From a virus: a stretch of DNA of 64,000 nt. This document shows positions 54,580 to 63,506 of the stretch, piece after piece. Numbering within the stretch: position 1 is the stretch's first letter; each line of letters opens with the position of its first letter. A program made the position numbers and the translations under genes. The notes under the pieces are model-generated. The model did not search any database and had not been told where the DNA came from. It saw only the letters and a list, made by a program, of their open reading frames with translations. The stretch lies in the IMG/VR virus record IMGVR_UViG_3300018080_000001, positions 64,001-128,000 of that record; one strand, 5' to 3'.

Positions 54580-56763
54580 TTACCAAGGTCTCTTACCGGG
54601 CAATAACCTACCTGTATAAGATCCAGCCTGAGAAACTTGTCGCTTTCTCATCTCGCGCAGCTTCATAGTATCCGACGTTCTATCTACTACAGAATCTTGT
54701 ACCAGTTTATTAGCGCCCACTACACAATGTGCAGTGTCATCGGAATCAATACCGCGCTTCTTACCTTTATTTGGGTTAAAAACTTTCTTCAAGTCCGGAG
54801 ATCTGTTCAAACGCATAAGCTCCACAACCGCCACACCCGCTCCACTCATTTCAACTTGTGTCTTCCCAAACATTAAATTTCCATGTGCATCTATATCAAG
54901 ATTGTCTTTTTCATCGGGTGGCAGCATCACAACACGACCGTTATAAGCTAAACGTACAAAAGACACAAAATCCTCGACCTTCAAACTCTCTTTATGAGAC
55001 ATAATACCTAAATCTCTTATCTGTTGTATGGAACTATCAGAACTCCAACGATCAAAACAGACTGAAGCAATATTAATACGATCTTTTAAATTTTGGATAA
55101 TATCTATAATACATTGAAACCAAATATCGCGCTCAACAGTGGGTACAATGCGCATAGCGAAATCCACCACCGTCGTTAACATCTCTCCAGGGTGTATTCT
55201 TGAGACAATAGGCTTAACCGGCTGATTTACAAAACGCTTCCCCATTCCTCTAGCTGAAGGACTATCGGGATGAACACCGTACCTATCCTGTATATGCATC
55301 ATGCCGCCTGATGGCTCTATACGCCCTCTGGCTGGCTCCGCAATCGCCGCATTGCCCTCTTCATATATCTCAGCATCAACCCACTCAGGATGAGCACAGA
55401 CAAGCGCAAAACTATCCCAAGAGACACCCGCATCACCAAACAAATAATGAGGGGTCTTAGGCACTAAATCGCAAAATTCTAAGGCAGAAGCCACATACAA
55501 CTTTTCCGTTTTATCACTACGGTATTCTTCAACAAACGTAGCAATCGGCCTACGATTAAAATCAATTGAAGACCAAAATCTTAAGGGATCATCAATCAAC
55601 GGTGTTTCTGCATTTGGAGGATTAGCCCCAAAATCTCTCTCCGCACCTATTGGATCTTCCGCGTATTTATCATCAAAAGCAGACCTTGGCTGCTCTGGAT
55701 TAAACTCCCATGTAGGGCAGTGCACCCAATAAGTTTTCTTCAACTCCCTGGCCTGTGCTCTTTTGCAATGAAGCATCGCAGGATCTTCTTGAGATAGGGG
55801 GGAAGTAACATTAAACATCATACCAAAAGGTAACGTTGTAATATCATGAACCAGATTATAGTTTCTTACCGTCATCAAAGAGTTGTCCAAAACTCGATAT
55901 AACTCTTTAGCAGATCGTGCGCTTTCCGTATCCTGTAAACGAGACCACTCATCAATAGAAGAAAATATCCTAGTTTTACCCGCTACACCACTACTATCGG
56001 AAGCAATCCTATTGTAACGAACTTGTAAATAACCATCACTTATAATATGATCTAACTGACGGTACTTCCAAGGATCTACGCTGCCTGTCTGCTTTCTTTC
56101 CTTTTTCTTAACCCAATTTATATACTTTTTTATCCAAGGGCTGTTCTTGCGCATCTCTCTATATTTTGCGTATATAGTATCTTGCGCCTGAGTTGCAGTA
56201 GATGCGGCAAAAGTCACTTCAAACCATTCTGATCTCTCCTGACCTAGAAATGTTTGGAGAGCTCCTTTGTTTCTTATACCCTGGGTTATAGCTAAATGCT
56301 CTATATAACCCCCAACATGACCGCCTGAATACGATTTTCCCGCACGCATTCCTATAATCCAAATACCGTCATTTACATAACGAATAACCCCGTCTTTAAG
56401 AAATTCCCGCATCGTATTGCCGCACTTAGGACAAACAAAATCTTTATAATCGGTATTCCAAACTAATAATGTCTCGGACTCTAATTCTAATCTAGATTTA
56501 CCCCAACAACTTATATCTTCAGGATCTTGAGAATTACATAACTTGCATCTCAAATTAAACATATCTCGAAGATGCTGGTATTGCCCCCAAAACTTATAAG
56601 TAGACGGAACATTCCAGTACTCCGTACGAGTAATCCATTCAATTATGTTTGGAGCCGGTTGACTAAGATATTCTAAATCTTTATCGACAGAAGCTGACCC
56701 AGAAGAAACGCAGCTATCTATTTTATCGTCTAAATCAGATAAAAAATCATCCAAGTCTTTCAT
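54580..56763 (-). CDS. terL: Terminase large subunit
   Basis: Walker A 'GMRAGKS', Walker B 'FSSIDEW', coupling motif 'VTSP', nuclease motifs 'FGDAGVSWDSFA', 'CFDRW', 'SDDTAHC'. Confidence 0.9.
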   Translation of the reverse strand: MKDLDDFLSDLDDKIDSCVSSGSASVDKDLEYLSQPAPNIIEWITRTEYWNVPSTYKFWGQYQHLRDMFNLRCKLCNSQDPEDISCWGKSRLELESETLLVWNTDYKDFVCPKCGNTMREFLKDGVIRYVNDGIWIIGMRAGKSYSGGHVGGYIEHLAITQGIRNKGALQTFLGQERSEWFEVTFAASTATQAQDTIYAKYREMRKNSPWIKKYINWVKKKERKQTGSVDPWKYRQLDHIISDGYLQVRYNRIASDSSGVAGKTRIFSSIDEWSRLQDTESARSAKELYRVLDNSLMTVRNYNLVHDITTLPFGMMFNVTSPLSQEDPAMLHCKRAQARELKKTYWVHCPTWEFNPEQPRSAFDDKYAEDPIGAERDFGANPPNAETPLIDDPLRFWSSIDFNRRPIATFVEEYRSDKTEKLYVASALEFCDLVPKTPHYLFGDAGVSWDSFALVCAHPEWVDAEIYEEGNAAIAEPARGRIEPSGGMMHIQDRYGVHPDSPSARGMGKRFVNQPVKPIVSRIHPGEMLTTVVDFAMRIVPTVERDIWFQCIIDIIQNLKDRINIASVCFDRWSSDSSIQQIRDLGIMSHKESLKVEDFVSFVRLAYNGRVVMLPPDEKDNLDIDAHGNLMFGKTQVEMSGAGVAVVELMRLNRSPDLKKVFNPNKGKKRGIDSDDTAHCVVGANKLVQDSVVDRTSDTMKLREMRKRQVSQAGSYTGRLLPGKRPW

Positions 56764-60384: not shown

Positions 60385-60588
60385 CTAATCCTCTTGATCT
60401 ACTATTTTTTCCAGTAATTTTATTAAATCTTCGCACGCTTCTTTCTTGAAATGAACAACTACAATGCCTCCATTTACATTATTTTTTGTACAATAATTAT
60501 ACTGAATTTTTAATTTTTCTAAAATTAAAAACAAGTCTAAATTATCTACTTTTGATAAACCTAATTTTATAGGTTTTATATTACTCAT
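60385..60588 (-). CDS. Hypothetical protein
   Basis: ATGA overlap with the upstream gene. Confidence 0.45.
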   Translation of the reverse strand: MSNIKPIKLGLSKVDNLDLFLILEKLKIQYNYCTKNNVNGGIVVVHFKKEACEDLIKLLEKIVDQED

Positions 60589-60773
60589 GGCGCTTCTTCC
60601 GTCATAAATTGCATGGAACTCTTGGTTAAAACCAGATCAGAAATTTTTAGTCTTTCATCAGGATTCAAGCACGTAGCACACGTAAGTTTTTTTCTAAACT
60701 TTATAACTATATCAACTTTTCCGCAATGCTTACACACACCCTTTTTACCCAGACTTCTACTGTTATTTGTCAT
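60585..60773 (-). CDS. Zinc-ribbon small protein
   Basis: CKHC...CATC. Start is coupled to the kinase stop (TAATG). Confidence 0.55.
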   Translation of the reverse strand: MTNNSRSLGKKGVCKHCGKVDIVIKFRKKLTCATCLNPDERLKISDLVLTKSSMQFMTEEAP

Positions 60774-62074
60774 TATTCATTACCCGCTGTTTTCAGTATT
60801 GGTAGAGTTATATAAAAAGTAGTTCCTTTATCATCTGTTTTATATAATTCTAATTTTCCGCCCAATGCTTTTATTTTATTTTTAGCTAAAAATAAACCAA
60901 GCCCACTACTTCCTTGCTTTTCTTCATCTGTATTAAATTTTGTAAAAAGTTTATTCTTTATTTCCTCCTTTATACCCGGTCCATCATCTTCAATAGCAAT
61001 TGTTATAGATCCTCCACCATTTACTACCATTAATATTATTTCAACTTTTGAAGATCCGGCCTCAAAAGCATTATTAATTAAATTATCTATCGATATTCTT
61101 AAATTTTCCATTTTACCTTTTATATAAACATTAGGTAATTGTTTTATTATAATATTCTTATTTATATCGTTAGAATACAACTCGTCTATAAGATCTTTAA
61201 TACAAAATTTATCATCACCATCTTTTATATTACATAAATAATCTTCCGCTATTTTAGATATTTTATCTACATCTATTATAGTATCATTCAGCGCATCAGA
61301 TGCATCTATACTGTTGATTTCACTACTTTCTTTTATAAATTGAAGATTAAAATTAACCGGTAATATTAAATTTTTTATTTCATGCAGTAAAGTACCTACT
61401 GCAATAACACTGGAATCAACTTTATCCTCTTTTAATAATATATCTACTTGATCAAGAGCATCTTCCGTCTTTTCTTGTTTAACTTCTAGTGTTCTATATG
61501 AACGAGTTAATCTTGCTTGATGTAAATAAAAAACAAAATTAAATACAAATAAGAAAAACTGAATTACAGTAATATCTAGTATTAAAGAAAATATAAAAGG
61601 TATTAATATAATTTTAATAACACTTATAATAGAAATACCTATAAATCTAGCCCATTGATTACACATTATTATATAAAGAACCATCAAACTACACGAAACT
61701 GTCGGTACAGACGACAGTGATGCCATTATAGTAACCGACGAAGCATAAAGAGGTATATCTATTAATTGCGATATTACTGCTACGTGCTTATTTTTATGTT
61801 TCCAATAATAATGATAACCTGTAGAAGAGATTAAACCCGCGATACTAGAGAATATAAGAGGAAACCAACAAATAAAATAATAATAATTTTCATATAAATT
61901 TATACCAATATTGGTAAAAGAAAATAAAAACACAACGGGTATAACATAAGCCGGACCACATTGAAGCATAGAACCTTCTAAATTAATTGAATTATAATAT
62001 GAGAACCAGAGCTTTTTTATCCCTTGAACAAACTTACTAAATTTTGACAATATTCTATTGCTATTGAACCGCAT
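60773..62074 (-). CDS. Multi-pass membrane sensor histidine kinase
   Basis: About 5-6 TM segments. H-box 'LLHEIKN', N-box 'NLINNAFEA', G1 'IEDDGPGI', F 'LFTKF', G2 'GLGLFLAK'. Confidence 0.92.
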   Translation of the reverse strand: MRFNSNRILSKFSKFVQGIKKLWFSYYNSINLEGSMLQCGPAYVIPVVFLFSFTNIGINLYENYYYFICWFPLIFSSIAGLISSTGYHYYWKHKNKHVAVISQLIDIPLYASSVTIMASLSSVPTVSCSLMVLYIIMCNQWARFIGISIISVIKIILIPFIFSLILDITVIQFFLFVFNFVFYLHQARLTRSYRTLEVKQEKTEDALDQVDILLKEDKVDSSVIAVGTLLHEIKNLILPVNFNLQFIKESSEINSIDASDALNDTIIDVDKISKIAEDYLCNIKDGDDKFCIKDLIDELYSNDINKNIIIKQLPNVYIKGKMENLRISIDNLINNAFEAGSSKVEIILMVVNGGGSITIAIEDDGPGIKEEIKNKLFTKFNTDEEKQGSSGLGLFLAKNKIKALGGKLELYKTDDKGTTFYITLPILKTAGNE

Positions 62075-62769
62075 ATTTCTGCCTTACATTCTAAATCGTC
62101 TAACGCTCTATTAAATAAATTACTTTTATCTTTATTACTTAAACTTATATAACGTTCGTCTAGCGAATTTTTATCATGTATGATTTGTAAAATGATTCCA
62201 TAAGTCATACCTAAATTATACCAATTTTCTAAATTATCAGATCCTCCGGATATAGCAGCTAAATTAAAATATAGAGCGAACTGCTCTCCCGCAACTCTTT
62301 TAGCCACTTCATAATAAGTATCATAATCCCATAAAGTTGTAACTAATTCTAATCTTTGACCCACAAACATTTTGGATAACGAAGTAAACATTATGTTCGC
62401 AATTTTATCTGAGATAGAGTAAGATCTCATTACAGCCAGACTAAACATATGCGATTGAGTATTGATTTGCAAAGACATTGGTATATCCATATAAGATGAA
62501 TCACCATCCTGCATATCGTCGGTCAAGTTTACAGCGGCAAAGAACAACTCAGCCAAAGAACCCGCGACAAGGGCTTGGCTTTCTAAAGCTCCAATCTTCT
62601 TACTCACATCATATACTAACCCCCCGGGGTGTGCCTGTACAGAAGAACGGTCAAGAGCCTTCTGTATGTTCTCCCGAGAAGGCGCGTCAATAACAGGGAA
62701 TTGTTCTTGCGAGAGCTTGTAGAGCCATCTACGAGTCTCCCAGCTTATATAAGGGTTGGAAGCAGACAT
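62017..62769 (-). CDS. ComQ-like class I isoprenyl (peptide prenyl) transferase
   Basis: FARM 'LTDDMQDGD', 'GQRLEL', and a degenerate second motif 'LQIIHDKNS'. The 250-aa length is shorter than chain-elongating synthases. Confidence 0.78.
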   Translation of the reverse strand: MSASNPYISWETRRWLYKLSQEQFPVIDAPSRENIQKALDRSSVQAHPGGLVYDVSKKIGALESQALVAGSLAELFFAAVNLTDDMQDGDSSYMDIPMSLQINTQSHMFSLAVMRSYSISDKIANIMFTSLSKMFVGQRLELVTTLWDYDTYYEVAKRVAGEQFALYFNLAAISGGSDNLENWYNLGMTYGIILQIIHDKNSLDERYISLSNKDKSNLFNRALDDLECKAEICGSIAIEYCQNLVSLFKG

Positions 62770-62786
62770 GATTTATAAAATCAAAA

Positions 62787-63050
62787 CTAGGGAAAGTATA
62801 CAGCTGCGCCAGACACATTACTATTTAGGACGTTAGTATCGTCCATAAATTTCTTTACCGCGTCTTTCACAGTTTTTGCTTTGGCGGGGTCTCCAGCGGC
62901 CAGATCATCAATAGCTTCTTCCAGCTTCTTCTCAAATGCCGGATTAAAACTTTGTGCTCCTGGGTTTCCGGTAATAGCTCCGATCTCATACAATGCTTCT
63001 AGCATTGCAGGGAAAGAGCTAGCCATGTTAATAAGTACGGGGGTTGCCAT
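62787..63050 (-). CDS. Putative pheromone precursor peptide (ComX-like)
   Basis: 87 aa, strong AAGGAG RBS, 17 bp upstream of the prenyltransferase. N-terminal LINxxxxFPxxLxxL and C-terminal ...GAAVYFP. Confidence 0.55.
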   Translation of the reverse strand: MATPVLINMASSFPAMLEALYEIGAITGNPGAQSFNPAFEKKLEEAIDDLAAGDPAKAKTVKDAVKKFMDDTNVLNSNVSGAAVYFP

Positions 63051-63143
63051 TTTCTCTTCTCCTTGTTATTCATACATTCACTGCGAATGCATACAACAGT
63101 CTCTAATATACTATAGGATCTTTGGAAAATATAAAAAATCTAT

Positions 63144-63506
63144 TTATAACGGCGTAATTGTACTGGCTGTGGAAGGAACCACTCCATTATTATAGTCATC
63201 CAATAACTGATTATAATTTTCAATTATTTCATTTATTTTTGTTTTTAACGCAGGAATTGTAGGAACTTCGTTATCATCCAACCAATTAGCCAAGCCTTCT
63301 ATTATTATACGTGTAAATTTATCTGCCAACCATTCTTGACCAGGCGTTACCGTATCACCTGGTTCTGGCGGTGTTGGCGGGGTTCCGATATCTGGAGGAT
63401 ACTCAATTTTTAACCCTGTAGGATCTCCTAAAGCAAGTTTTATATCTTCTTTACTGGCATCTGCAACATCTTGTATTGCACTGCTTAAATCTCCGTAGGT
63501 AGTCAT
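63144..63506 (-). CDS. Hypothetical Pro-rich protein
   Basis: AGGAG RBS, 120 aa. Confidence 0.55.
   Translation of the reverse strand: MTTYGDLSSAIQDVADASKEDIKLALGDPTGLKIEYPPDIGTPPTPPEPGDTVTPGQEWLADKFTRIIIEGLANWLDDNEVPTIPALKTKINEIIENYNQLLDDYNNGVVPSTASTITPL

Follow-up and report, generated by a model that had tools for sequence, protein, structure and literature searches.

An uncultivated phage was found to carry a three-gene cassette in which a small peptide gene, a gene for a ComQ-like enzyme and a gene for a membrane histidine kinase follow one another on one strand. The enzyme has the fold and the motifs of a ComQ-type protein with a marked departure, a His in place of the Asn of its second motif, and the 87-aa peptide encoded beside it contains no tryptophan. 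We lean to the view that the 87-aa product is the cognate partner of the enzyme and is modified at a residue other than Trp, while giving this view rather less than an even chance of being right.

In the mechanism that we propose, the peptide would have a helical leader and, after it, a short and flexible tail (...VSGAAVYFP), and the enzyme, which keeps a donor-binding FARM, would bind the leader. A prenyl group from GPP or FPP would then pass to a nucleophile of the tail other than Trp, chemically most plausibly Tyr85, and the modified tail would be cut off and released. The adjoining membrane histidine kinase would then sense the tail and signal via a host response regulator, in what may be a form of quorum sensing.

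The phage and its cassette

The phage record is 170,099 bp long, has direct terminal repeats and is rated complete. The window, the 64,000-nucleotide stretch of DNA that was analysed, covers bases 64001-128000 of this record; its G+C content is 35.8%, and the minus strand carries about 92% of its ORFs. The large terminase (54580-56763) shares 35.7% identity with that of the nearest GenBank phage, Virus Rctr197k, and a terminase-based search of IMG/VR for relatives of the phage returned none. Five paralogous proteins of 519-538 aa with a common N-terminal domain are encoded past the end of the window, at genome positions 130249-139501 (window coordinates 66249-75501). Their genes come immediately upstream of the locus, which places the cassette between likely tail-spike genes and the terminase. 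No response regulator was found anywhere in the phage, so any signalling output must run via host proteins.

The candidate precursor gene (62787..63050, -) encodes an 87-aa ORFan and is preceded by a strong ribosome-binding site, AAGGAG (63064-63059, -), 8 nt before its ATG. Its GC1 of 0.56 exceeds its GC2 of 0.40, a coding-type pattern, and we regard the ORF as a real gene. The enzyme gene (62017..62769, -; 250 aa) follows on the same strand after a gap of 17 nt, and is overlapped by 58 nt by the kinase ORF (60773..62074, -; 433 aa), which has an alternative start, Met36, at 61969. A stop-codon recoding that would extend the 87-aa peptide was considered and rejected, because all three stops are in use in the phage (116 TAA, 69 TGA and 67 TAG) and table 11 leaves long ORFs unbroken.

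The intergenic region upstream of the peptide gene (63051..63143, -) measures 93 nt, which puts it in the upper 17.5% of phage intergenic gaps (median 5 nt). Besides AAGGAG, it holds an imperfect inverted repeat, ATACATTC-n5-GAATGCAT at 63072-63092, in which 7/8 bases pair. The preliminary description had seen a possible operator in this repeat. The repeat is present, but the operator idea found no support in the counts: the same geometry (8 bp, at most one mismatch, 5-nt spacer) occurs 56 times in the 64-kb window, and 8-bp inverted repeats with 3-8-nt spacers occur 291 times, five of them within 62700-63200, so that the repeat stands at chance frequency. A sigma-70 scan gave no promoter match in the 93-nt gap.

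Gene order in bacterial relatives

When the phage enzyme was compared with 401 Bacillota genomes, the best match had 30% identity over residues 63-203, and the locus of this match was found to consist of a small peptide, a ComQ-like enzyme and an overlapping membrane kinase. Within one Bacillota order (L166-L195), 29 of 30 loci carry peptide, ComQ and kinase in the order seen in the phage (X-Q-P), with peptides of 58-66 aa once over-long N-termini are trimmed. At these Bacillota X-Q-P loci the peptide gene stops a few nucleotides before the enzyme gene and the kinase lies directly next. Four high-GC metagenome contigs (L196-L199) have the same order with NHLP-like peptides of 74-91 aa, one peptide ORF call of 129 aa being probably over-extended at its N-terminus. 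The identity of X-Q-P enzymes to the phage enzyme, 20-28%, is the highest seen.

Across the four clades examined, 29 PalX loci of Paenibacillaceae among them, the gene for the partner peptide directly adjoins the enzyme gene and runs in its direction; a single locus, L192, has no adjacent partner peptide, and it also has no kinase. The 87-aa ORF is the sole co-oriented small gene directly adjacent to the phage enzyme gene, 17 nt away and in the order of 33 X-Q-P loci, so it resembles partner peptides in the broad sense by adjacency and departs from them in having no C-terminal Trp. Adjacency alone is weak evidence, since small ORFans flank most genes of this phage. The peptide had earlier been proposed as a ComQ-type precursor on several grounds; the positional argument has gained from cassettes in the same order, and the Asn-to-His change speaks for it as well, but the arguments from the leader and from the operator have fallen away.

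The third codon position gives a further link between the genes. GC3 is 0.41 in the peptide gene and 0.45 in enzyme codons 1-125, compared with a genome mean of 0.277 (sd 0.071); in enzyme codons 126-250 it is 0.20, and in the kinase gene 0.16, which is in the bottom 5% of the genome. The block of raised GC3 suggests a common history of the peptide gene and the N-terminal half of the enzyme, and the break near 62395, inside the enzyme gene, looks like a recombination joint.

The bacterial survey yielded two observations in its own right. Peptide-ComQ-kinase cassettes abound among the 103 genomes of the Bacillota order (L166-L195, L202-L220): about 45 have strong matches, and several have multiple strong matches to the ComQ-type query on different contigs, up to four per genome. 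Each such locus carries its own Trp-tailed peptide, which suggests several parallel pheromone channels per cell. Contigs L197-L199 (53-60% G+C) mix features of the ComX and PalX systems: they pair ComQ-type enzymes with NHLP-like leaders (up to 17.8 bits with the PalX profile) and kinases of 915-934 aa.

The ComQ-like enzyme

The enzyme was recognised by the Pfam polyprenyl_synt family at 27.7 bits (cut-off 27). A ComQ profile built from 14 Bacillaceae sequences scored it at 23.1 bits; a second profile, from 30 X-Q-P ComQ enzymes, scored it at 22.6 bits. In either search (E ~3e-6) it is the only match among the 1431 phage ORFs. Profiles of HepT and IspA, taken from the same genomes, gave 1.0 and -1.8 bits, and a PalQ profile gave -2.2 bits. 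PalQ/PalX was rejected as the closest family on this score together with -1.3 bits for the peptide.

Structural models agree with this assignment. The ESM Atlas model is an all-alpha IPPS fold with a pTM of 0.83. An AF2 model on alignment A1, which consisted of ComQ and IPPS sequences, also has an IPPS fold, with a pLDDT of 82 as against only 36 for AF2 on the single sequence. Foldseek aligned it to IPPS structures with TM scores of 0.77-0.80, the best PDB structure matches being to 4wk5 and to the mint GPPS small subunit.

The FARM of the enzyme, DDMQDGD (62500-62520, -), contributes D84, D85, D88 and D90, which align with 44/44 ComQ-type sequences. Extended by one residue to DDMQDGDS, it is nearly identical to the DD[IV]QDGDS of metagenomic ComQ-type enzymes and is without the RRG loop of IPPS, which HepT and IspA show as ...LRRG. 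The pseudo-SARM (62173-62187, -) reads Q195-I-I-H198-D199. ComQ is recognised here by NDxxx with a Gln one turn ahead of it, and 44/44 ComQ-type enzymes read Q-x-x-N-D; the phage enzyme has the Gln and the Asp, has His198 for the Asn, and has its third acidic residue displaced by two positions. A chain-elongating trans-IPPS would have a DDxxD SARM and RRG after the FARM, and the phage enzyme shows QIIHDKNSLD as its second motif and no RRG. ComQ-type enzymes exceed it in length by 55-100 residues.

In a maximum-likelihood tree the phage enzyme sits on a branch of 3.64 changes per site, joins with a support of 0 and is not placed in the ComQ clade. As the tree cannot place it, membership of the ComQ family rests on motifs and profiles and not on phylogeny. 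Judged by these, the protein is plausibly a highly diverged ComQ-type (trans-IDS-like) peptide prenyltransferase. A word-index search of 5.8 billion proteins returned no homologue of the enzyme even at E<=10, and none was found in IMG/VR, by tblastn against phage records or by sequence against the PDB. In the ESM Atlas, the cluster nearest to it by features (0.95) is one of 242 aa, mostly from Myxococcota, which by structure ranks level with three others (TM about 0.84).

The replaced Asn has a known role in a related enzyme. In StheQ, N215D causes a 98% loss of activity, and N215 was modelled 4 Å from the indole N1 (bioRxiv 10.64898/2026.08.29.745113). The Gln and Asp of the pseudo-SARM are thought to read the indole N-H (PMC13290415); because the phage enzyme retains both, it may yet be Trp-specific. 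For a phenol, His198 could conceivably serve as the base. With the Trp gone from the peptide and the Asn replaced in the enzyme, matching elements have been lost together in both.

The same changes can also be read as decay, in which case the cassette would be a remnant of a captured peptide-ComQ-kinase cassette with an impaired enzyme, a peptide that has lost its Trp and no signalling. The pseudo-SARM is altered at 2/3 of the positions whose mutation cripples StheQ (10.64898/2026.08.29.745113), and the His for Asn, the displaced acidic residue, the shortened C-terminus, the very long branch, the change of composition halfway along the enzyme gene and the missing response regulator all fit with such a history. 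Yet the genome is tightly packed and none of the three reading frames is broken, the enzyme keeps its FARM, K159, Q195 and D199, and the peptide gene has retained its strong ribosome-binding site and coding-type composition. We consider decay very improbable.

The 87-aa peptide and known precursor families

The preliminary description had seen a likeness between the N-terminus of the peptide and the ComX leader. This likeness found no support when the peptide was compared with ComX as a family. Pfam ComX (PF05952) does not match the 87-aa peptide, or anything else in the phage, at E<=10, and a ComX profile built on the peptides of 14 genuine comQ-comX-comP loci fetched from Bacillaceae genomes scores it at -0.6 bits, a value equalled by 228 of 1000 shuffled sequences. 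By published criteria a ComX has 52-73 aa, is encoded between comQ and comP and carries a Trp in its last 5-10 residues (PMC4008528); the phage peptide has 87 aa, its gene lies upstream of the enzyme gene, and it has no Trp at all. No ORF of at least 30 aa was found between the enzyme and kinase genes. A 23-codon ORF at the canonical comX position (61961-61890, -; ...FFYQYWYKFI), just past the enzyme gene, was judged to be probably a chance ORF, because 13 short ORFs with a Trp in their last 12 residues occur in 6.5 kb and because it lies, in another frame, inside the first membrane helix of the kinase. A pattern back-translated from the ComX core of B. subtilis 168 found nothing in genome_contigs.

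The PalX/NHLP profile scores the peptide at -1.3 bits. The four partner families themselves (ComX, the X of X-Q-P, NHLP-like X and PalX) barely detect each other, with cross-family scores of -2.2 to 11.3 bits and a sole exception of 17.8 bits for NHLP-like X against PalX. Since known partner families cannot find each other by profile, the missing family similarity of the phage peptide is uninformative on its function.

Searches for homologues of the peptide gave little. The word-index search of 5.8 billion proteins returned only the peptide itself, and an ESM Atlas search returned nothing usable. An exhaustive HMMER search of 1.84 billion proteins had one match, to a repeat motif in P0003, a metagenomic repeat protein of 1661 aa that is rich in Ser/Asp. 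The motif (FPA..L..TG.PGA and TGN..SF..AFEK.L) is repeated five times and matches peptide residues 8-61, with an overall E of 3e-6 and 40% identity over 35 aa; the Pfam and PHROG matches of P0003 were uninformative. Co-folding of the enzyme (alignment A1) with the 87-aa peptide gave a score of 0.00 in a run without controls and counts neither way on binding.

It has also to be asked whether the peptide acts without being modified, as a leader-like decoy, adaptor or inhibitor that would bind either the phage enzyme or a ComQ of the host and would tune or block production of the host pheromone. Such a role would suit a product of precursor-like position and size from which the acceptor Trp is absent. 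We nevertheless find it improbable: with no similarity to any leader family, nothing points to docking on a host enzyme, and the phage has an enzyme of its own but no Trp-bearing substrate with which the peptide could compete.

The C-terminal tail and the proposed acceptor residue

Translation of 63050-62787 (-) bore out the earlier claim of a Trp-less peptide with Tyr third from the end. The peptide also has no Cys, His or Arg, and its C-terminal tail, NSNVSGAAVYFP (encoded 62790-62825, -), has Tyr85 (codon 62798-62796, -) in third and Phe86 in second place from the end.

For comparison, 76 bacterial partner peptides were collected (14 ComX, 29 X-Q-P, 4 metagenomic and 29 PalX; 10 further loci lie beyond these), and every one of them has a Trp at -1, -2 or -3. 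Among the 47 ComX-type peptides, Trp is at -2 in 43 and is the only Trp in 44, and the residue before it is F or Y in 30. Tyr85 had been placed at the Trp position of ComX; it is indeed third from the end, but the majority register of -2 aligns Phe86, not Tyr85, with the Trp. An adjacent aromatic pair occurs in the last five residues of 32/76 partner peptides as against 16/279 phage ORFs, and the Tyr-Phe pair of the phage tail resembles their [FY]-Trp pair.

All characterised trans-IDS-like peptide prenyltransferases act on Trp, and replacement of the Trp abolishes PalQ activity (PMC13290415). ComQ substrate studies are likewise consistent with a Trp target (PMC13731918). Modification of Tyr or Phe is pure conjecture, and we rate it as unlikely that the His-variant ComQ-family enzyme prenylates Tyr85, or another non-Trp residue, of an 87-aa phage precursor.

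The universal Trp of the partner peptides and the Trp specificity of the known enzymes lend weight to a different account, in which the 87-aa ORF codes for some small, unrelated protein of the phage and the enzyme uses a Trp-tailed host peptide, free Trp or indole, or some other acceptor. Ord1 reportedly acts on free Trp or indole. A host signal would then be re-tagged or boosted, and the kinase would sense either the product or the host's own signal. The retention of Q195 and D199 fits with this account, as does the lack of a match between the peptide and any precursor family. Trp-less ORFs are common in the phage, making up 41 of 139 (29%) of its ORFs of 60-120 aa, and a phage without a response regulator has to connect to host circuitry whichever account is right. 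Three points weigh on the other side: every bacterial cassette examined, save L192, has an adjacent partner peptide; the Asn required for Trp prenylation in StheQ is absent from the phage enzyme; and the aromatic-pair tail and the common GC3 block tie the peptide to the enzyme. An unrelated ORF is in our judgement quite possible, if on the doubtful side.

The membrane kinase

Four stretches of the kinase are hydrophobic, which corresponds to about five or six membrane helices; it also has an H-box (LLHEIKNLILP) whose HEIKN is NtrB-like, and a HATPase_c domain. ComP is defined by HisKA_3 (PF07730) and the ComP sensor; for the phage kinase only HATPase_c families match, and HMMs of the N-terminal regions of ComP and of the X-Q-P kinases gave no match to it. 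The kinase of L197 is of the HisKA/GAF class, resembling the phage kinase in being HisKA, and not of ComP's HisKA_3 class, which indicates that the kinase module is interchangeable and that a non-ComP kinase does not disqualify the phage cassette.

A 62-aa CxxC...CxxC zinc-ribbon ORF (60585-60773, -) begins on the stop codon of the kinase and may be its downstream partner in place of a response regulator. Elsewhere in the window, a 159-aa ORF (2121-2600, -) is the sole phage ORF that scores against the ComP N-terminal sensor profile (17.1 bits, E 1.4e-4, 1431 ORFs).

Novelty and implications

No ComQ-type gene was found among 50,697 phage records or in IMG/VR; the present one would be the first from any phage and would extend phage eavesdropping and talking past arbitrium-type and agr-type peptides. 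One phage record matched by a bacterial ComQ-type query, MT839172, was set aside as an ordinary octaprenyl synthase beside DNA polymerase I. In the literature, judged by title or abstract, no paper describing a phage ComQ-type gene was found.

The characterised IPPS-fold peptide prenyltransferases ComQ, StheQ, PalQ and ChrPC all modify tryptophan. If the phage peptide is modified at another residue, this would be the first departure from tryptophan among trans-IDS-like peptide prenyltransferases. The phage would also be the first to make a lipidated peptide signal, which its own membrane kinase would read. The joint loss of the peptide Trp and of the Trp-positioning Asn of the enzyme offers nature's own test of what determines the choice of acceptor, and perhaps a way to Tyr-selective long-chain lipidation. 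Should the peptide turn out to be unrelated, what is left is a phage with an orphan ComQ-like enzyme and a kinase, which is still unusual but a different story.

Comparison with known systems

Among phage systems, the nearest likeness is with arbitrium (AimP/AimR) and with the agr genes of phage phiCDHM1, which also consist of a phage-encoded small peptide and a sensor. Arbitrium peptides are unmodified and agr peptides are thiolactones, and we know of no prenyltransferase involved in arbitrium or phage agr systems.

In the comQXPA system of Bacillus (ComQ IPR033965, ComX PF05952, ComP, ComA), as in the phage, an enzyme of IPPS fold has a DDxxDxD FARM, is without an RRG loop and has a Gln ahead of its degenerate second motif; its gene adjoins, on one strand, those for a small soluble peptide and for a histidine kinase that crosses the membrane several times. 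The phage cassette differs in being phage-borne, in its order of peptide, enzyme and kinase in place of Q-X-P and in having no ComA. Its peptide has 87 aa and no Trp compared with the 52-73 aa of ComX, its pseudo-SARM has HD for ND, its enzyme has 250 in place of about 300 aa, and its kinase is without HisKA_3 and the ComP sensor domain.

Closer in gene order are the X-Q-P cassettes (L166-L195, L196-L199) and StheQ/StheX of Sphaerobacter thermophilus (10.64898/2026.08.29.745113), which also have the DD[IV]QDGDS type of FARM. Their peptides end in Trp (-1 to -3), unlike that of the phage, and their enzymes carry Q-x-x-N-D and measure 313-354 aa. The PalP-PalX-PalQ system of Paenibacillus alvei resembles the phage cassette in being a three-gene unit made up of a kinase, a precursor of about 80 aa with a long leader, and a peptide prenyltransferase of isoprenoid-synthase fold (PMC10853753). 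PalX, like the phage peptide, has a short core at its extreme C-terminus, but it ends in a Trp that PalQ strictly requires (PMC13290415), whereas the phage peptide has none.

Peptide Tyr prenylation, the chemistry that the preliminary description put forward, is established only for the cyanobactin enzymes PagF, LynF and PirF (as cited in PMC13731918). These enzymes have an ABBA fold unrelated to that of the phage enzyme, need no metal-binding FARM and belong to macrocyclic RiPP pathways and not to signalling cassettes.
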